A stretch of DNA of 64,000 nucleotides from an uncultured Ectothiorhodospiraceae bacterium (GTDB lineage Bacteria; Pseudomonadota; Gammaproteobacteria; GCA-002705445; GCA-002716945): contig CAYFEQ010000003.1 of NCBI GenBank assembly GCA_964342155.1, forward strand, positions 27,734-91,733. The letters are read 5' to 3'. Both the position numbers and the translations under genes were made by a program. The notes under the pieces are model-generated. The model did not search any database and was not told the origin of the DNA. It worked only from the letters and a program-made list of their open reading frames with translations. Below are positions 2,028-58,340 of this stretch, in pieces. How positions within the stretch are numbered: position 1 is the stretch's first letter; every line of letters begins with the position of its first letter.

Positions 2028-4616
2028 TTAACTAATCATACTATTAAGTACATAATTCAATATACCTTCATTTTTATAATATTTCCACTCCATGGGAGAA
2101 TCAATTCTTATTTTGACCATAAATGACGCTGGCTTTTTATTAATCAAAGTTTCAATTGTAACTGTGTCAGAATTTTCATTAATTTTGTCTATTGTGAATG
2201 TTGACGTAGCGTCAAGTTTCAATGAATCAAAGTTTTCATTCTCAAGGAATTGAAGAGGCAAAATACCCATTCCAACAAGATTAGAACGATGAATGCGTTC
2301 AAAACTCTCAGCAATAACTGCCTTAACTCCTAAAAGCTTTGTACCTTTTGCCGCCCAATCACGAGAAGATCCACAACCATAATCTTTTCCAGCAAATATT
2401 ATTAAATTACTTTTATTCTTTTTATACTCTTGTGCTGCATCATATATTGTCATTATTTTATTATTCGGTATATATGAAGTATATCCACCAGTTTTTTCTG
2501 GAACTAATTTATTTGATAAACGAACATTAGCAAAAGTTCCACGTTCCATAATCTGATAATTACCTCTTCTTGATCCATAGGAATTAAAATCAATTTCATT
2601 AAACCCTTTATCAACTAAAAAACTACCAGCAGGAGAATTTTTCTTGAAGGATCCTGCTGGAGATATATGGTCAGTAGTGACACTGTCACCTAAAATTACA
2701 AGTGGGTAAGCATTATCTATTATATTGAATTTTTTTTCATTATTATAAACAGTCTCAAAAAATGGAGATGGTTGTATGTAAGTTGATTTTTCTTCCCAAT
2801 TAAAATAATCAGATTCATCAATTTTAATAGCTTTCCAATTTTCATCACCTTCAAATACTCTTTTATAAGAATTCGCAAACATGTCGCTTGTAATTGTCTC
2901 TTTTATAATAGATGTGATTTGATCTGAATCTGGCCAAATATCATCCAAATAAACATTTTTTCCGTTTTTATCTTTTCCTAGTGGTTCAGAAGTAATATCA
3001 ACATTTATTCTTCCCAACAATGAATATGCTATTACCAATATAGGCGATGCTAAGAAATTCATTTTTATTTCAGGATGTATACGGCCTTCAAAATTTCTAT
3101 TTCCAGACAATATTGAGCTAGCAATTAGATTATGTTTTTCAATTGCTTCCGTATATTCTTTTTTTAAAGGACCAGAATTTCCAATACATGTTGTGCATCC
3201 ATAGCCAACAACATTAAAACCTAATAAATCAAAGTATTTAAGCAGTCCTGATTTTTTTAAATAATTAGTAACAACTTTAGATCCAGGAGCTAATGATGTT
3301 TTAACCCAACTTGGCACTTTCAAACCTCTTTCAACTGCTTTCTTAGCAAGAAGTCCTGCTCCTATTATTACATTTGGATTTGATGTATTAGTACAACTTG
3401 TAATTGCGGCAATTAAAATTGCACCATTATCAATTAATGATTTTTCTTGTGTTTTCCCATTTGTTTGTTGTTTAATTTCATTGTTGACCAGTTCTTTTAC
3501 ATCAGTTAAATTTACTCTATCTTGTGGTCTTTTTGGTCCAGAAATACATGCATTAATCTTAGAGATATCTAAATCGATAACGTCTGAATAAATTATTTTA
3601 TTTTCATTATTCATAAATAAACCAACTCTTTTAGAATATTTCTCAACTAACTCAATATGTTCTTTGCTTTTTCCTGTAATTTTTAGATAATCAAGTGTCA
3701 AACTATCAATTGGAAAATAACCGCACGTTGCACCATATTCAGGTGCCATATTTGCAATGGTACATCTATCTGCTATTGATAAATTTTGTAATCCATCACC
3801 AAAGAATTCTACAAATTTACCAACGACATTTTTCTTCCTTAATATTTCAACAATTGTTAATACTAAATCAGTTGCAGTAATAGCCTTTTTGAGTTTGCCA
3901 GTTATTCTGAAACCTATTACTTCTGGTAAAAGCATTGGGATTGGTTGCCCCAGCATTGCAGCTTCAGCTTCTATACCTCCAACCCCCCAACCTAGAACAC
4001 CAAGACCGTTTACCATAGTTGTGTGGGAATCCGTCCCGACAACAGTATCTGGAAATAAAGAATTATTATTATTGAAAATAACTTGAGATATGTGCTCTAT
4101 ATTAATTTGATGAATTATTCCATTATTTGGCGGAACAATTCTTAAATTTTTAAAAGAGCTTTGCCCCCACTTCAATAATCTATATCTTTCTAAATTTCTT
4201 TTATATTCTAATTGAGTATTTAAATCTTTAGCTTTGTCGGTGCCAAAATGATCAACCATAACTGAATGATCAATCACCAAATCCGTTTGGCATTGAGGGT
4301 TTATAGATGATGGATCACCACCAAGTTTTTTTATAGCATCACGCATTGAAGCAAGATCTACTATAGCTGGGACACCAGTAAAATCTTGCATTATTACTCT
4401 ACTTGGTAAAAAGCTTAATTCTGTTTGATTCTTTATATTACCATTCCAATTAATAAAGTTTTCTACTGTACTATTTAAAGAAGATCCAACATTATTTCTA
4501 AGTAGATTTTCTAATAGGACTTTGAGGGAATATGGAAGATGACTAATCTTTAATTTATCAATATCGTGGATAGAAAAACTTTTATTTTGATGAACTAATT
4601 TATCAATACAATCCAT
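2028..4616 (-). CDS. acnA: Aconitate hydratase A
   Basis: RVIMQDFTGVP, VGTDSHT, AAITSCTNTSNP, GYGCTTCIGNSG, TTDHISPAG, YGCGSSRDWAAKG. Confidence 0.97.
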   Translation of the reverse strand: MDCIDKLVHQNKSFSIHDIDKLKISHLPYSLKVLLENLLRNNVGSSLNSTVENFINWNGNIKNQTELSFLPSRVIMQDFTGVPAIVDLASMRDAIKKLGGDPSSINPQCQTDLVIDHSVMVDHFGTDKAKDLNTQLEYKRNLERYRLLKWGQSSFKNLRIVPPNNGIIHQINIEHISQVIFNNNNSLFPDTVVGTDSHTTMVNGLGVLGWGVGGIEAEAAMLGQPIPMLLPEVIGFRITGKLKKAITATDLVLTIVEILRKKNVVGKFVEFFGDGLQNLSIADRCTIANMAPEYGATCGYFPIDSLTLDYLKITGKSKEHIELVEKYSKRVGLFMNNENKIIYSDVIDLDISKINACISGPKRPQDRVNLTDVKELVNNEIKQQTNGKTQEKSLIDNGAILIAAITSCTNTSNPNVIIGAGLLAKKAVERGLKVPSWVKTSLAPGSKVVTNYLKKSGLLKYFDLLGFNVVGYGCTTCIGNSGPLKKEYTEAIEKHNLIASSILSGNRNFEGRIHPEIKMNFLASPILVIAYSLLGRINVDITSEPLGKDKNGKNVYLDDIWPDSDQITSIIKETITSDMFANSYKRVFEGDENWKAIKIDESDYFNWEEKSTYIQPSPFFETVYNNEKKFNIIDNAYPLVILGDSVTTDHISPAGSFKKNSPAGSFLVDKGFNEIDFNSYGSRRGNYQIMERGTFANVRLSNKLVPEKTGGYTSYIPNNKIMTIYDAAQEYKKNKSNLIIFAGKDYGCGSSRDWAAKGTKLLGVKAVIAESFERIHRSNLVGMGILPLQFLENENFDSLKLDATSTFTIDKINENSDTVTIETLINKKPASFMVKIRIDSPMEWKYYKNEGILNYVLNSMIS

Positions 4617-6472: not shown

Positions 6473-7855
6473 TTATATAAGTTTCTTTGGATCTAATAAT
6501 TTTACAAGTTGTGATCTTGATAAATTTGTCATCTGTTCTGCTATATCTATTATTGATTTATTAGTCTTATATGCTTCTTTTACAATCTTAGCTGCAAGAT
6601 CATAACCAACAACTTCATTGAGTTTGGTTGCAACAATAGGGTTTCTTTCTAAACTCTTTCTGATATTTTCCTCATTAGCTTTAAATCCTTGTATTGTTGA
6701 AGCCAATGATAAGCATGAGTCAGTAACTATTTCAAAAGATTCTATGATGTTGTGAGCAATTATGGGCAACATAGTATTTAGCTGGAAATTGCTCGACATA
6801 CAAGCCGAAGTAATTGAATTGTTATTGCCTAGCACTCTTGTCATAGCCATAAGTATTGCTTCCGGCATAACTGGATTAATTTTGCCTGGCATTATACTGC
6901 TTCCAGGTTGAAGTGGTTTAAGAGTAATTTCTGCTAAACCCGATGTAGGTCCACTATTCATCCATCGGAGATCATTACAAATTTTTGTAATAGAAGATGA
7001 GATTCTTACTAATGATGCGCTCATAGTTAAAATATGATCCTGAGATGATATCATCTGACCTTTTTCAGATAGAGGTCTAAATTTTATTTTTAAATTTTTA
7101 TAAATCTTATTTAATTCAATGCATACTTTTTTATCAAATCCTTTGGGTGCGTTTAATCCTGTTCCAATTGCAGTTCCACCGATAGGAATGGATAGTATTT
7201 CATCACGAGCAGTATCCATGGTTGAATATGCAGCCTGTAATAACTGTCTCCAAATTTCAATTTCTTGACCAAAGGAGATTGGAACTGCATCCATAAGATG
7301 AGTGCGTCCAGATTTAACAATTTTCTTTAAGTCATTAGATTTTTTTTCCAAAACATAATCTAGATAACCCATGCTATCAACAAGTTCTGCTTCAGCTCTC
7401 ACACAACTAATATTTATTGTTGTTGGTATAACATCATTAGAGCTTTGTGATTTGTTTATATCATCATTTGGATGAACTTTTTGTTTAAGCTTCTTTGAAA
7501 CTAAATTTGCTAAAACTTCGTTCATATTCATATTAATGCTTGTTCCAGAACCTGTTTGATATAATGGTGCTGGAAAATGTTCATAATAATCAGCTATATT
7601 ATTATTAATTTGTGATGCGCATTCATGTATTGCAGATGATAGTTTCTTATTAATAATATTTGATTTGTAGTTGGCAATTGCACAAGCACCTTTTAGCATT
7701 GCTAAAGATTGAATGAAGCTTGGATAAAACCAATCATTGCCTATCTGGAAATTATCAACAGCTCTCTGGGTTTGAGCGCCATACAAAGCATCTTTCGGAA
7801 CTTTTACCTTACCTAAAGAATCTTCTTCAATTCTATATGTAATTTTCTTTTTCAT
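6473..7855 (-). CDS. fumC: Class II fumarate hydratase
   Basis: YGAQTQRA, QTGSGTS.NMN.NEV, GRTHLMDA.P, PGSSIMPGKINP signature. Confidence 0.94.
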   Translation of the reverse strand: MKKKITYRIEEDSLGKVKVPKDALYGAQTQRAVDNFQIGNDWFYPSFIQSLAMLKGACAIANYKSNIINKKLSSAIHECASQINNNIADYYEHFPAPLYQTGSGTSINMNMNEVLANLVSKKLKQKVHPNDDINKSQSSNDVIPTTINISCVRAEAELVDSMGYLDYVLEKKSNDLKKIVKSGRTHLMDAVPISFGQEIEIWRQLLQAAYSTMDTARDEILSIPIGGTAIGTGLNAPKGFDKKVCIELNKIYKNLKIKFRPLSEKGQMISSQDHILTMSASLVRISSSITKICNDLRWMNSGPTSGLAEITLKPLQPGSSIMPGKINPVMPEAILMAMTRVLGNNNSITSACMSSNFQLNTMLPIIAHNIIESFEIVTDSCLSLASTIQGFKANEENIRKSLERNPIVATKLNEVVGYDLAAKIVKEAYKTNKSIIDIAEQMTNLSRSQLVKLLDPKKLI

Positions 7856-23953: not shown

Positions 23954-24277
23954 ATGACATATGTTATCACAGAAAACTGTATAAAGTGTAAATATACTGA
24001 TTGTGTTGAAGTATGTCCAGTTGATTGCTTTCATGAAGGTCCGAATTTTTTAGTCATTAATCCAGACGAGTGTATTGATTGCTCTCTGTGTGAACCTGAA
24101 TGTCCTATAGATGCAATTGTTTCTGATGAAGACATTAAAGACGATGATAAAAAGTTCCTTGAAATTAATGAAAGACTTTCTAAAAAATGGCCGGTTCTTG
24201 CTCAAGCAAAAGATGCGCCAGCTGATGCCAAGGAATGGGAAAATAAAAAAAATAAGCTTAAGCTGTTAGAAGAATAA
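23954..24277 (+). CDS. fdxA: 7Fe/8Fe ferredoxin (FdxA type)
   Basis: [18 protein letters not shown] and [12 protein letters not shown]. Confidence 0.92.
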
Positions 24278-52383: not shown

Positions 52384-52788
52384 TCATTTAAAAAAAAATT
52401 CAATTTCTTTTTTAGCATTTTCAATGCTGTCAGATCCATGCACTGAGTTTCTTTCTTTGCTTTCAGCAAAAAGTTTTCTAATTGTTTCTGGCTTAGCATC
52501 TTCTGGATCCGTTGCTCCCATAAGGTCACGATAAGCATTAACCGCATTATCACCTTTGAGTTTTAGAGCTACTATTTTATTTGAAGTCATGTAATCAACA
52601 AGAGATTTAAAAAATGGCCTGTCTTTATGGATAGAATAAAATTCTTCAGCATTATCTCTCGAAAGCTGCAACATTCTTACTTCCATTACTTTCAATCCAT
52701 TTTTTTCGATTAAAGAAATTATTGAGCCTATAAGATTTCTTTCAATAGCATCTGGTTTAATTATAGATAATGTTTCTTCAAGCGCCAT
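52384..52788 (-). CDS. ndk: Nucleoside diphosphate kinase
   Basis: TLSIIKPDA, GATDP, NSVHGSDS. Confidence 0.97.
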   Translation of the reverse strand: MALEETLSIIKPDAIERNLIGSIISLIEKNGLKVMEVRMLQLSRDNAEEFYSIHKDRPFFKSLVDYMTSNKIVALKLKGDNAVNAYRDLMGATDPEDAKPETIRKLFAESKERNSVHGSDSIENAKKEIEFFFK

Positions 52789-52986
52789 TTACTTTTCCTC
52801 TATCCAAGCCATCTGTATAGCCTCTAAAATTTTTTCATTAGAATTATCTGGCACATCATCAAAATCATCCAATTCACATATCCATTTATGTAAATCAGTA
52901 AATCTTATGGATAAGGGATCTATATCCGGGTGTTTATCATCAAGCGCAATTGCTATCTCTAAACTATCTGTCCATTTTAAGCTCAT
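52789..52986 (-). CDS. iscX: Fe-S assembly protein IscX (start MSLKW at 52986)
   Basis: LKWTD..EIA..L...HPD.DP..IRFTDL..WI..L.DFDD...[13 protein letters not shown]. Confidence 0.95.
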
Positions 52987-52987
52987 A

Positions 52988-53326
52988 TTAATTGCTCTCT
53001 GACACCTGATTAATTGTATATTTTGGTATTTCAACAATCAAATCTTTATTATTGATAATTGCCTGGCAACTTAATCTTGATTGAGGTTTGAGTCCCCATG
53101 CCTTATCTAGATAATCATCTTCATCCTCTGTTGGAGATTCAAGAGATTCATAACCTTCATTCACATATACATGACAGGTTGTGCATGCACATGATAGTTC
53201 ACATGCGTGTTCAATCATTATTCCACTATCAAGAGCTGCCCGACAAATACTTGTTCCTTGAGGGACATCTATTGTAGCTCCTTCTGGGCAAATTTCTTTA
53301 TTGGGTAAAAATGTAATTTTTGGCAT
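52988..53326 (-). CDS. fdx: ISC system 2Fe-2S ferredoxin
   Basis: [20 protein letters not shown]. Confidence 0.96.
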
Positions 53327-53330
53327 CGAA

Positions 53331-55061
53331 TTAGATTATATCATCAATATTTTTACCTGCAATCAAGGACTTAATGCTGGCATTCATTCTTCGTTCTACA
53401 TAAAATTCAGATGATTCTTCTAATTTTTTAATTGCTGATAAGATTTCATCTGAATTATCTTTTTTTATTAATTTTTTTAATTCTTCTAATGGTGTATTGA
53501 TTAAGGAAAATTCATTATCATCTAATAATTCTTTTCCATCTTTTTTCAAAGCTTCGGTTATTGCATAAATTACTCTTTCAGCTTCAACCCTACTTTCATT
53601 AAGTTTTCTTAACTTCATATCAATTTCAGCAGAATTATTTGAATCTTCTATCATTTTCATAAGCTCATCTTCAGTCATTCCATAAGAAGGATTAACTTCT
53701 ATATCTGTTCTATTTCCTGAACTTTCTTCCTCTGCAGATACCGATAAAAGACCATCAACATCAATTTGAAATTCAACCTTAATTCGTGCACCCCCTGCTA
53801 CCATTGGTGATATATCATGCAATGTAAATCTTGATAATGATTTACAATCGTCAACTAATTCTCTTTCGCCTTGTATGACATGTATTAGTAATTTAGTTTG
53901 CCCATCTTTGAATGTAGTAAAATTTTTTGAAGCAGAAACAGGTATTGGTGTATTCCTAGGTATAATTTTTTCAGATAAACCTCCATAGGTTTCTATTCCA
54001 AGGGATAATGGCAATACATCAAGTAAAAGGATTTCTTCTTTGTTAGTCCCAGATAGAACCCCAGCTTGTATAGCTGCTCCCTCTGCTACAACTCTGTCTG
54101 GATCAATATCGTCAAGAATTTCACATTCAAATTCATTTTGTAATAAATTTTTTATTAACGGTATTCTTGTTGAGCCACCAACGAGAATAATATTTTTGAT
54201 TTTATTAGTTTCTAGCCCCGAACTCTTTATAGCTTGTTTAGTCATCATCAAGGTTCTAGCGACAAGATCTTTTATTAGTTTATTAAAATCAGCAACTGAT
54301 AACCTTTCTGAATCTTGATTGGTAGTACATATATTTTCTTTAATAAGTTTAGCCTCTTCTAATTCACATCCAATACTCTCTTTTATTAAATTATCAATAT
54401 CATCCCCTCCAAGTGATGTATCTCCATCAGTAGATAGAACCTTAAATACTCCTTTTTGAAGATTTAATACTGAAACATCAAAAGTTCCTCCACCTAAATC
54501 ATAAATAACAAAATTACCTTTTTCCTTAGTGTTGAGTCCATAGGCAATAGCTGCAGCAGTCGGCTCATTTAATAGACGAAGTACTTTTAATCCAGCTATT
54601 TCAGCTGCTTTTTTTGTTGCCTGTCTTTGAATATCATTAAAATAGGCTGGTACAGTGATAACAGCTCCATCTATTGGCTTTTTCTCATTTTTTTCTACAA
54701 TTTCTTTAAGAGCTTTTAATATAAGTGATGAAATCTCAATTGCACTAAATTTTTTACCTGAATCAGATGTTATCATTGGTAGTTTCTCATTAGATAAATC
54801 AAATTCATGTGGAAGTTTGTTAACAAGATTTTTAACTTCTGAGCTAGTTAAGCCAATTAATCTCTTTATAGATTTAATTAACAAAGGCTTTTGAGATTGA
54901 TCATTTATATTAACTACAGAAGGATGCAGTGAACCATAAAATTTTGTTTGTTTACCTCTAGATGCTATCAATGAATTTGTAGTTCCTAAGTCAATACCTA
55001 CTATAAATTTATTTAATTCATTATTAGTAGACTCGGGGTCAGATATTTGAATTAAACTCAT
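53331..55061 (-). CDS. hscA: Fe-S assembly chaperone HscA (short, 576 aa)
   Basis: GIDLGTTNS, TVPAYFND.QRQAT, YDLGGGTFD, VGGSTR, MVAGGARI; isc operon context. Confidence 0.93.
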   Translation of the reverse strand: MSLIQISDPESTNNELNKFIVGIDLGTTNSLIASRGKQTKFYGSLHPSVVNINDQSQKPLLIKSIKRLIGLTSSEVKNLVNKLPHEFDLSNEKLPMITSDSGKKFSAIEISSLILKALKEIVEKNEKKPIDGAVITVPAYFNDIQRQATKKAAEIAGLKVLRLLNEPTAAAIAYGLNTKEKGNFVIYDLGGGTFDVSVLNLQKGVFKVLSTDGDTSLGGDDIDNLIKESIGCELEEAKLIKENICTTNQDSERLSVADFNKLIKDLVARTLMMTKQAIKSSGLETNKIKNIILVGGSTRIPLIKNLLQNEFECEILDDIDPDRVVAEGAAIQAGVLSGTNKEEILLLDVLPLSLGIETYGGLSEKIIPRNTPIPVSASKNFTTFKDGQTKLLIHVIQGERELVDDCKSLSRFTLHDISPMVAGGARIKVEFQIDVDGLLSVSAEEESSGNRTDIEVNPSYGMTEDELMKMIEDSNNSAEIDMKLRKLNESRVEAERVIYAITEALKKDGKELLDDNEFSLINTPLEELKKLIKKDNSDEILSAIKKLEESSEFYVERRMNASIKSLIAGKNIDDII

Positions 55062-55573
55062 GAGGTCAATTTATCGTTAAGTTCATTTGCATGTTTAATA
55101 TAAAATCTTAGTTTGCAAAAAATATTCCACATTTCTTCAAAATCCTTTTTCAAATAACAGTTTTTTATATCATTGATAGATAAAGATATTTTCTTAATTA
55201 TATTATTTTGATAAGAGCTTACTTGGTTAGAATCATTCTCTTTAATATTGTCAATGAATTCATTGAACTCAATTTGCTCTAATAAAAAATTATCATCCTT
55301 AAGTGTTTCAGATTCATCTCTTTTGAAATTATTAATTTTAAATATATAATCAATTCTTTTAATTAAGTCACCTAAAGTTACATATCCATCATTGATATAA
55401 GATGATATTTGAAGAGCTAATCTCTTTTCATGGCTAGATGAATTGGAATATTTATCAGGATGAAATTGTTGTTGTAAATTATTATATTTATTATCCAACG
55501 CAGGCTTATTTACTTCTATACTAACTTCGATACCAAATAAATCAAAATAATTCTTCTTTAAAATGTCCATCAA
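55058..55573 (-). CDS. hscB: Fe-S assembly co-chaperone HscB
   Basis: NYFDLF, FHPDK J-domain, FLLEQIE; context. Confidence 0.92.
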
Positions 55574-55893
55574 ACATTAAAACTTTCACCGCATCCACAT
55601 TCATCTTTGACATTTGGGTTTTTGAATCTAAATCCCTCATTAATACCTTCTTTTGAAAAGTCTAATTCTGTTCCTTTAAGATAAACATAGCTTTTTGGGT
55701 TGATGATTATTTTTATGCCGTTATCATCAAAAACTAAATCATCCTGCTCAATTTTATCAGCAAATTCAATTACATACGCGAGCCCTGAACATCCAGTAGT
55801 TTTTACACCTAATCTAAGACCTATTCCTTTACCACGGCTTGAAAGATGTCTTTGCGCATGTTCTGCTGCTGATTTAGTAACTGATATTGACAT
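55570..55893 (-). CDS. iscA: A-type Fe-S carrier IscA (likely start MSISV at 55893)
   Basis: [24 protein letters not shown]. Confidence 0.96.
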
Positions 55894-55895
55894 TT

Positions 55896-57149
55896 TTAAT
55901 GACTCGACCATTTAACTTTCTTTAAATCAATGCCATCTTTATGCATTTCCCATAATGGCGATAAATCTCTTAACCTGCTTACGTTGTCTTTAATAATTTT
56001 TAGGACATGCTCAATATCTATTTCTGTTGTATATTTCCCTATTGTCATTCTTATCGAACTATGAGCTAACTCATCATCTCTTCCTAGAGCTCTTAAAACA
56101 TAACTTGGTTCAAGGCTTGCAGATGTGCAAGCTGATCCAGAAGAAACAGCAACGTCCTTCATTGCCATTATCAAACTTTCTCCTTCTATGAAATTAAAAC
56201 TCACATTTAGATTACCCGGTATCCTTTGATCTAAATCACCATTAAGGTAAATCTCTTCCATATCTTTTAGTCCATTCCAAAGTTTATCTCTTAGTTTTAG
56301 AATTCTTTTATTGTCTTCTAACATTTCTTCTTCAGCAATTCTAAAAGCCTCTCCCATTCCTACAATCTGATGCGTTGGAAGAGTTCCAGATCTAAAACCT
56401 CTCTCATGACCACCGCCATGCATTTGAGCTTCTAATCTTACTCTTGGCTTTCTACGTACATAAAGCGCACCTATTCCCTTTGGCCCATAAACCTTATGTG
56501 CAGAAAGAGATAATAAATCAATATTATATTTATCAACATCTACTTTTACTTTGCCTGGACTTTGAGCAGCATCCACATGCAATATAATATTTTTTTCTCT
56601 AGTGATTTTTCCTATACTTTCCAAATCTTGAATAACTCCAATCTCATTATTTACATGCATTATAGAAATTAATATAGTTGAAGGAGTAATTGCTTCTACT
56701 AGTTTTTTCTGGTTTAAAAGTCCATTAGGTTCTGGATCAAGATAAGTTACTTCAAATCCTTCATTTTCAAGCGACCTCATTGTATCAAGAACAGCTTTAT
56801 GTTCAGTAGACAGTGTTATAAGGTGATTCCCTCTATCTTTATAAAAGTGTGCTGCACCTTTTATTGCTAAATTATCTGATTCAGTAGCTCCACTAGTCCA
56901 AATTATTTCCCTATGATCTGCATTGATTAAAGAAGCAACATTTTTTCTAGCTTCTTCGACAAGTTTTTCGCTTTCCCACCCAAATGTATGTGAACGAGAC
57001 GCTGGGTTGCCAAACGCTCCTTCGATAGTCAGACACTCAGACATCATCTTCGCAACTCTAGGGTCTACAGGAGTAGTTGCTGAATAATCAAGATAGATTG
57101 GTATATTTAAAATATTCTTTTTATCATGTAAGTTTGTTGCCATATCCAT
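55896..57149 (-). CDS. iscS: Cysteine desulfurase IscS (exact start uncertain)
   Basis: [39 protein letters not shown]. Confidence 0.97.
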
Positions 57150-57582
57150 GCTCCCTTCTTTTATCTACAATATTTTGGATATCATATCTTACAATTACAT
57201 CGCTGAGTGAGACTCCCTTCATGTAATCATGTATTTGTTTTGTTAAGTCGGTCCAAACATAATGAGTCAGGCAGGGTTTATCATTACTACAATTCATTGC
57301 GCCACCACATTGGGTTTGATCCATATTCTCATCAACAGCAGTTATAATTTCGAATAGAGTAATTTCTGATGCCTCTCTATCTAGTTTGTAGCCACCTCCT
57401 GGACCTCTAACACTTTTTACTAAAGATTTGGTCTTCAATTTAGAGAATAATTGTTCCAAATATGATAATGAAATATCTTGTCTTTTTGATATTTCACTTA
57501 GTGATATAGGGGTTTTTTTCTGGAAAAGTGCAATGTCAATCATAGCCACTATTGCATATCTTCCTTTAGTTGTAAGCTTCAT
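57124..57582 (-). CDS. iscR: Fe-S cluster assembly regulator IscR
   Basis: [25 protein letters not shown]; C-x5-C-x5-C-x2-H ligands ([17 protein letters not shown]). Confidence 0.96.
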
Positions 57583-57605
57583 AACTACCTCAGAGTAATT
57601 ATCAT

Positions 57606-57630
57606 ATACCTGAGTAATTTAATCAATTAT
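57606..57630 (-). promoter_or_regulatory. Type-1 IscR operator overlapping the isc promoter -35
   Basis: Minus strand ATAATTGATTAAATTACTCAGGTAT matches 22/25 positions of the type-1 consensus as I recall it (ATASYYGACTRWWWYAGTCRRSTAT); contains TTGATT-N17-GATAAT. Confidence 0.75.
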
Positions 57631-58340
57631 TATTTTACCTTTCTATTAATTGAAGCAATGATTCCAAGAAGAATATTAATTTCATCTTTATCTAGCGATG
57701 CCTTATTGAAAATTATATGAATTTTTTGAGTTAATGATTTAATATTTTTTTTTGTCATAAATTTAGTATTCATTAGCAAAGCAATGAGTTCTTTATAAAA
57801 AAAATTTTTTTGTTTTGTAGGAGCAAGTTTTACTTTACTCAAAAGTGGCTTTGTGTGTTTAAAAGAATATTTGAACAATTCATAAGAGAATATTTGAACA
57901 GCAGCAGCTAAATTTAATGATTGATAATCTTTGTATGTCGGTAACTTTACTAGATAATTACACATTAACAAGTCTTTATTCGATAAGCCAGATTGTTCAT
58001 TACCAAATAGTATAGATATCTTTTTTTTTGGATGCGCATAAAGAAGCTTTATGCATTGATCAATAGTAAGTTTTGGTACATTTGCTTTTCTTTCACGAGA
58101 GCTAAAGCCAATGTTGATTTCTGATTTTTCTAAAGCATCTGTCAGATTGTCGAATATTTTTGCTCTTTTAATTACATCTTTACATCCAACAGCTAAAGCA
58201 TATGAGTCATTCGTTGGCAACTTCTTTGGTTTTACTAAAGAGAGACTCTTCAATCCCATAACCTTCATCGCTCTTGCTGTAGCGCCAATATTTCCGGGAT
58301 GAGAAGTTTCTAGTAATAATATCTCTATATTCTTCAACAT
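57630..58340 (-). CDS. trmJ: tRNA (C32/U32-2'-O)-methyltransferase, TrmJ family
   Basis: HPGNIGATARAMK.MG, FGNEQSGL, SLNLAAAV; upstream of iscR. Confidence 0.9.
   Translation of the reverse strand: MLKNIEILLLETSHPGNIGATARAMKVMGLKSLSLVKPKKLPTNDSYALAVGCKDVIKRAKIFDNLTDALEKSEINIGFSSRERKANVPKLTIDQCIKLLYAHPKKKISILFGNEQSGLSNKDLLMCNYLVKLPTYKDYQSLNLAAAVQIFSYELFKYSFKHTKPLLSKVKLAPTKQKNFFYKELIALLMNTKFMTKKNIKSLTQKIHIIFNKASLDKDEINILLGIIASINRKVK

Follow-up and report, generated by a model that had tools for sequence, protein, structure and literature searches.

Iron-sulfur cluster (ISC) assembly in bacteria is commonly described in terms of the E. coli-type operon iscRSUA-hscBA-fdx-iscX. In this system, IscU is considered the indispensable site of assembly and the dedicated client of the chaperone pair HscA and HscB, which are not known to occur without it. 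The operon described here, at positions 52789 to 57582 of a 64,000-nucleotide stretch of contig CAYFEQ010000003.1 (the whole of which is called the window below), comes from an uncultured Ectothiorhodospiraceae bacterium and lacks iscU. In the identity, order, and orientation of its genes it follows the E. coli-type operon, including the IscR-type regulator that precedes them. Unlike it, it has no iscU between iscS and iscA, its HscA is 576 amino acids long with an altered substrate cleft, and its iscR and iscS overlap by 20 nucleotides.

How does this compare with other reduced ISC systems? A truncated ISC locus beside the SUF system is known from M. tuberculosis, which retains iscS only (PMC10848736). 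The window resembles that case in that ISC is partly lost, but M. tuberculosis has lost the chaperones, Fdx, and IscA as well and relies on SUF, whereas the window loses the scaffold only and keeps the rest under selection. Four marine loci of 33-34% GC (L120, L177, L197, and L209) have, like the window, a compact, reduced isc operon beside ndk, but theirs is the complementary loss: they read iscR-iscS-iscU-iscA-fdx-iscX-ndk, without hscB and hscA. Their IscU is diverged, being ~61% identical to the IscU of the sister clade described below. A literature search returned nothing on point for iscU-less ISC systems or for the ISC genes of SAR86.

The missing gene leaves no trace. The iscS-iscA junction reads ...TGG TCG AGT CAT TAA aa ATG TCA..., with exactly 2 nucleotides from the iscS stop to the iscA ATG, which is too little for any remnant of iscU. 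The narrow spacing reflects the general compactness of the genome rather than anything specific to this junction, since all of the operon gene pairs are packed within -4 to +4 nucleotides. Nor did E. coli IscU, B. subtilis SufU, or NfuA, used as tblastn queries, reveal a U-type scaffold elsewhere in the 64-kb window; the sole NfuA match was IscA, and no real open reading frame of the window contains an LPPVK-like motif. The initial annotation, made by a model from the letters alone, had described an ISC operon complete except for iscU, with 2 nucleotides and no remnant in its place, and both statements hold. The genes lie on the minus strand in the order iscR-iscS-iscA-hscB-hscA-fdx-iscX-ndk. 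Their identities were assigned with Pfam and NCBIfam profiles at curated cutoffs, applied to the translated open reading frames of the window, and the features are as follows.

57630-58340, minus strand: trmJ-like SpoU methyltransferase (PF00588), the same upstream neighbor in all relatives
57583-57629, minus strand: trmJ-iscR intergenic region, with promoter-like TTGATT-17-GATAAT and the direct repeat ATTACTCAGGTA / ATTACTCTGAGGTA
57124-57582, minus strand: iscR, Rrf2 regulator, 152 amino acids (PF02082, 3.8e-38)
55896-57143, minus strand: iscS, cysteine desulfurase, 415 amino acids, Cys328 loop intact (NF010611, 727 bits against a cutoff of 548; TIGR02006, 717 bits against 643)
55894-55895, no strand: the 2-nucleotide spacer "aa", read from the junction, which is the place of iscU in the sister clade and most Gammaproteobacteria
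55570-55893, minus strand: iscA, A-type carrier, 107 amino acids (TIGR02011, 170 bits against 150.6)
55058-55570, minus strand: hscB, J-type co-chaperone, 170 amino acids, with HPD motif (TIGR00714, 84 bits against 46.75)
53331-55061, minus strand: hscA, Hsp70 chaperone, 576 amino acids (NF003520, 685 bits against 620; TIGR01991, 655 bits against 708.55)
52988-53326, minus strand: fdx, ISC [2Fe-2S] ferredoxin, 112 amino acids (TIGR02007, 166 bits against 132)
52789-52986, minus strand: iscX, 65 amino acids (TIGR03412, 112 bits against 40.4)
52384-52788, minus strand: ndk, with a 0-nucleotide gap to iscX (PF00334), the same downstream neighbor in all relatives

IscS, IscA, HscB, Fdx, and IscX all score above their NCBIfam equivalog cutoffs. 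The group I active-site loop of IscS, SSGSACTS, is identical to that of E. coli, and IscA has the conserved cysteine pattern GCSG...CGCGESF. IscR falls slightly below the TIGR02010 cutoff (193.8 bits against 207.55), and its translation contains the C-x5-C-x5-C-x2-H pattern that corresponds to the cluster ligands C92, C98, C104, and H107. HscA scores above the HscA subfamily model NF003520 and below the stricter equivalog TIGR01991; its place in the operon and its synteny are those of the ortholog. The HscA of one close relative is labeled merely "Hsp70 family protein" by NCBI.

The initial annotation had named relatives as a check, and these show the same iscU-less junction. Four independent marine metagenome contigs, from Tara Oceans and other assemblies (L001-L004), carry it with all seven Isc proteins at 100% amino acid identity, and L085, a contig from an NCBI assembly, has the same arrangement at 99-100%. 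Further relatives were obtained as a graded series from an HscA protein search, with representative loci read at chosen identities. The HscA proteins of six diverged lineages, L095, L093, L094, L097, L096, and L101, are 83, 70, 69, 68, 59, and ~59% identical to that of the window, respectively. The spacer between iscS and iscA measures 1-4 nucleotides in L085, L093-L097, and L101, and all six diverged loci have the gene order yajC-secD-secF-(suhB)-trmJ-iscR-iscS-iscA-hscB-hscA-fdx-iscX-ndk-hisS-yfgM-bamB-der. Together with the window they form a deep clade, given that SecD is 65-87% and HisS 48-82% identical within the group. The clade is also abundant in marine metagenomes, as ~100 of the 120 HscA cluster representatives listed belong to it.

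A sister clade (L034, L046, L090-L092, and L098-L099) retains a canonical iscU between iscS and iscA. It shares with the window the extended synteny yajC-secD-secF-trmJ-isc-ndk-hisS-yfgM-bamB-der and a similar base composition (28-29% GC in the loci measured), and its SecD and HisS are ~50% and ~42% identical, respectively, to those of the window clade. Unlike the window, it has an IscU with LPPVKIHCS, M401, T414, and M433 in HscA, R99 in HscB, and suhB between secF and trmJ. Because iscU persists in the sister clade, whose gene order matches, a single precise deletion in the ancestor of the window clade is the simplest history. Synteny and gene content place the loss at the base of a deep, abundant, low-GC clade of marine Gammaproteobacteria. 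A transitional lineage was sought among the L401 variants of HscA, and the one read (P0223/L101) is also without iscU.

Is the remainder of the operon decaying? The ratio of nonsynonymous to synonymous substitution rates (dN/dS), calculated for the window against L095 or L097, is 0.13-0.17 for hscA and 0.14-0.18 for hscB. The comparison genes hisS and ndk give 0.12-0.15 and 0.13-0.20, and iscS, iscA, and fdx give 0.03-0.06. Since the deletion is ancient and clade-wide and both chaperone genes are under purifying selection, the operon is not decaying, and one of two alternatives must therefore hold: either iscU is encoded elsewhere, or clusters are built on another scaffold. This is the either/or that the initial annotation had posed, with HscA and HscB retargeted under the second alternative. 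The framing stands, and within it the indirect evidence leans toward an IscU encoded elsewhere.

The surfaces with which the remaining proteins would touch IscU bear directly on that choice. Each protein was aligned with 45-72 outgroup sequences, and a change was counted as clade specific when a column at least 90% conserved in the outgroups was altered in the clade. In the E. coli complex (PDB 3LVL), IscS contacts IscU through helix alpha8 (residues 309-316), E347, and helix alpha12 (residues 379-391), and deletion of residues 376-404 abolishes IscU binding (PMC2854127). Clade-altered columns make up 9 of the 225 conserved columns in IscS, and none lies within the three contact segments. The corresponding motifs, EGESL(I/M)MA, DELAH, and (R/K)LR.LSPLW(E/D)M(Y/H)K, are kept in every clade member, essentially as in E. 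coli, and the C-terminal tail is unchanged across the clade. The C-terminal IscU-binding region had looked conserved from the window alone; the comparison confirms this and extends it to all three contact segments.

Where, then, has IscS changed? Helix alpha2, which binds TusA, has A47S and A50L along with K at E49, and the basic patch that serves CyaY, IscX, and ThiI has N, S, or T in place of R116 in the clade. As judged from the alignment, the clade-specific substitutions cluster on the surfaces of partners other than IscU. The small proteins have changed little at conserved columns, with one clade-specific change in IscA, two in Fdx, and none in IscX. Fdx and IscX both function around IscS during assembly.

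HscB has likewise kept most of its IscU-binding patch. Binding is dominated by L92, L96, and F153, with a minor part for M93, and R87, R99, and E100 contribute 4-6 fold, the effect of R99 on affinity being ~6-fold in E. coli (PMC3040723). In the clade, L92, E100, and F153 are kept, position 96 is a hydrophobic I, and position 87 is K (E. coli numbering). Position 99, however, is N in all six clade members; 59 of 62 outgroups have R there, as does every sister-clade sequence. With the docking surfaces of both IscS and HscB retained, something IscU-shaped should therefore still dock on both.

The substrate cleft of HscA has changed more conspicuously. Positions were numbered as in E. coli from an alignment to PDB 1U00, and the cleft consensus is at least 90% conserved in 60 outgroups. 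Against this consensus the clade shows M401Y, T414P, A432K, M433L, R449K/N, and A452S/G. Among 120 clade cluster representatives, position 401 is Y in 113 and L in 7, position 432 is K in 118 and Q in 2, and positions 414 and 433 are P and L, respectively, in all 120. Outgroup and sister-clade HscA proteins keep the consensus, with the exception of L098, which has S for A432. Positions 401, 432, and 433 align with M404, A435, and V436 of DnaK, which form the arch and central pocket of its substrate cleft, and the cleft positions fall in the peptide-binding beta-subdomain of 1U00.

Do these substitutions signal that HscA serves a different client? M401Y occurs alone in L057 and L063 and T414P alone in L050, all three with an operon-encoded LPPVK IscU. 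M433L is found in five iscU-bearing loci (L017, L044, L061, L078, and L079; LPPVK) and in the iscU-less L082. A432K and the full four-change combination are unique to the clade, neither occurring in any outgroup. Because three of the four changes nearest the bound peptide (M401Y, T414P, and M433L, but not A432K) occur singly beside an LPPVK IscU, the cleft changes are compatible with the binding of canonical IscU. The cleft was considered as proof of the retargeting that the initial annotation had suggested, and it had to be downgraded: the clade-fixed changes lend that suggestion some weak support, being suggestive of a changed client but not diagnostic of one.

The length of HscA is a separate matter. 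At 576 residues the window protein is ~36-40 amino acids shorter than usual (~606-623), because its ATPase domain lacks two segments, after residues ~42 and ~230. Both deletions recur in L095 and L093 and are absent from L094, L096, and L097, which dates them after the loss of iscU.

Operons without iscU are not confined to this clade. The outgroup sample consisted of 80 IscS loci from a search of genome contigs with IscS; the best of the matches listed were 74% identical, and the species of the window was not among them. Six of the 80, from Gammaproteobacteria outside the clade, have no iscU between iscS and iscA or within 8 kb on either side (L007, L013, L014, L021, L035, and L082). Like the window, they continue from iscS into iscA-hscB, and into hscA-fdx where the contig extends that far. 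Unlike it, they have a GC content of 43-69% and come from MAGs labeled Thiohalobacter, Ectothiorhodospiraceae, Chromatiales, and others. In a neighbor-joining tree, the four with a full-length HscA (L013, L021, L035, and L082) fall in at least three places, none of them with the window clade. The HscA clefts of these four are near canonical, with M401 in all and M433L in L082 only, and of the six loci only L082 departs from R99 in HscB, with H instead. Given their standard-looking chaperones, those genomes presumably encode IscU at another site, which raises the prior for relocation over true loss in the window as well. By the gene content of these loci, relocation or loss of the operon iscU recurs in Gammaproteobacteria. 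Two of their peculiarities may be recorded: L013, L014, and L082 carry an extra NifS-like gene (~380 amino acids) between iscR and iscS, and in L021 a gene for an RRM-type RNA-binding protein occupies the position of iscU.

The reading that best accommodates these findings, with a probability of about 65%, is that the genome does encode iscU, or a diverged U-type scaffold, at a site other than the operon. In the ancestor of the clade, iscU would have been excised precisely from between iscS and iscA of an otherwise ordinary iscRSUA-hscBA-fdx-iscX operon. What remains would work as in any ISC system, with IscS supplying sulfur, Fdx supplying electrons, IscX modulating, HscB and HscA releasing the cluster, and IscA carrying it. 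All of this would act on a U-type scaffold encoded elsewhere and thus outside the IscR-controlled operon.

Several observations weigh against a relocated iscU. No IscU of the clade was found in the 64-kb window or, in seven relatives, within the ~15 kb surrounding the operon. When the sister-clade IscU was used to search a collection of 5.8 billion proteins, the best 120 of 8000 scored candidates were all at least 83% identical to it and all canonical in LPPVK; in this shallow search, none of those 120 was linked to the operon-bearing contigs of the clade (389,715, 315,835, and 820,192 bp). All of the IscU groups whose context was read proved to belong to the canonical operons of other lineages (P0043, P0086, and P0133) or to T4-like phage (P0144). 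Finally, the combination of Y401, P414, K432, and L433 in HscA with R99N in HscB is found in no outgroup and would also fit a changed client.

How much do the failed searches count? In at least 120 metagenome stretches, no iscU was found behind a clade-type IscS, sought as the ending K-W-x-S-H-stop followed by MAY, though the pattern is loose and the negative correspondingly weak. The negatives for IscU are weak more generally because, with a protein this conserved, a copy ~80% identical to the query would rank behind thousands of clusters. In their IscU motifs, the genomes of 28-29% GC use G/C-ending codons. Judged by habitat, GC content, and abundance, the present lineage may be related to SAR86. 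SAR86 genomes have IscU homologues according to a phage study (PMC5332604), and if the relationship holds, these may correspond to the sister clade or to a relocated copy.

What if there is no IscU to find? The genome may have had no U-type scaffold since the deep ancestor of the clade, its clusters being built on IscA, an Nfu-type protein, or an unrecognized protein, with HscB and HscA retuned to that client. We hold this to be unlikely, if still to be reckoned with. Read in this way, Y401, P414, K432, and L433 together with the R99N change in HscB would be the signature of a client switch. The changes are fixed in the clade at columns at least 90% conserved among the outgroups, they map to the DnaK arch and pocket positions and the peptide-binding beta-subdomain mentioned above, the HscB residue lost in all clade members is the one worth ~6-fold in IscU affinity, HscA falls below its equivalog cutoff, and no search made has turned up an IscU attributable to the clade. 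A cell without IscU makes it hard to explain, however, why IscS should have conserved its docking surface, and HscB its L92/L96/F153/E100 patch, while HisS fell to ~50% identity. IscA, a candidate for the alternative scaffold, has its single clade-specific change and no LPPVK-like motif, and, as mentioned, other bacteria that have a canonical IscU show three of the four cleft changes singly.

A different arrangement would be a partial ISC system beside a SUF system encoded elsewhere, in which IscS would serve mainly tRNA thiolation and the supply of sulfur to cofactors, and HscB, HscA, Fdx, IscX, and IscA would work downstream, transferring clusters. Gene loss is common in streamlined marine genomes, the truncated locus of M. 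tuberculosis offers a precedent, and the window itself encodes mnmA (341-1417), which in E. coli depends on IscS for sulfur. But Fdx, IscX, HscB, and HscA have no known role that is free of IscU, and yet they are under purifying selection across the clade; moreover, the 64-kb window contains no SUF gene. This arrangement is quite improbable. That a mis-join or a collapsed contig lost iscU, or that the gap is otherwise an artefact of assembly or annotation, has next to no chance of being right: mis-assembly is refuted by the recurrence of the junction in four independent assemblies, the NCBI assembly, and six diverged lineages, drawn from ENA, JGI, NCBI, and Logan.

What the absence of iscU would mean depends on which reading holds. 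If the clade truly has no IscU, it would be the first natural case of an HscA/HscB pair working without it. HscA and HscB would then be able to serve a client other than IscU, and the clade would point to an alternative scaffold operating in vivo, in a lineage abundant in the iron-scarce surface ocean. If iscU lies elsewhere, which is the more likely, the consequence is more modest: the scaffold gene would have been uncoupled from IscR and from coexpression with iscS over a long evolutionary time, and such uncoupling would have been repeated in Gammaproteobacteria. Annotation based on operons would then wrongly score such genomes as "ISC incomplete." The clade-wide iscU-less operon is a new variant of the ISC system.

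The window is ~30% G+C throughout and consists of tightly packed housekeeping genes of gammaproteobacterial type. Between them, the intervals 2028-4616, 6473-7855, and 23954-24277 encode an aconitase ([4Fe-4S]), a 7Fe-type ferredoxin (Fer4 plus DUF3470), and a class II, FumC-type, iron-independent fumarase; with the aconitase and the ferredoxin encoded, the cell needs Fe-S cluster assembly. Upstream of iscR, on the minus strand, the direct repeat listed above overlaps the promoter-like TTGATT-17-GATAAT (57590-57630) and may be an IscR operator. Promoter-like matches in the trmJ-iscR region are not above chance.

IscU also turned up outside bacterial operons. Four T4-like phage contigs (L086-L089), with homologues of gp5, gp6, gp25, gp53, and gp9/10, encode a canonical IscU (P0144), an A-type carrier, and ribosomal protein S21. 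The phage IscU carries LPPVKIHCS and is 88% identical to the IscU of the sister clade. Fe-S auxiliary genes of marine phages have been described, and these contigs match them (PMC5332604). Two further IscU entries, P0034 (183 amino acids) and P0077 (149 amino acids), have an internal duplication of the LPPVK-containing segment and are probably artefacts of metagenome assembly.

Two other changes have accompanied the history of this region. The gene suhB, for a protein of the inositol monophosphatase family, lies on the opposite strand in the secF-trmJ interval of the basal clade members L096 (2915-3691) and L101 (3918-4688) and of the sister clade, and it is gone from this position in the window, L093-L095, and L097. 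Set beside the distribution of the HscA deletions, this sets an order of events in which iscU was lost first, suhB next, and the HscA segments last. In the window, the start of iscS overlaps iscR out of frame. In L093 (4487-6169) and L101 (5476-7158), by comparison, the stretch equivalent to 57582-55896 of the window is a single in-frame open reading frame of 560 amino acids that combines Rrf2 and aminotransferase V domains and has no Met near the usual IscS start, an apparent IscR-IscS fusion.

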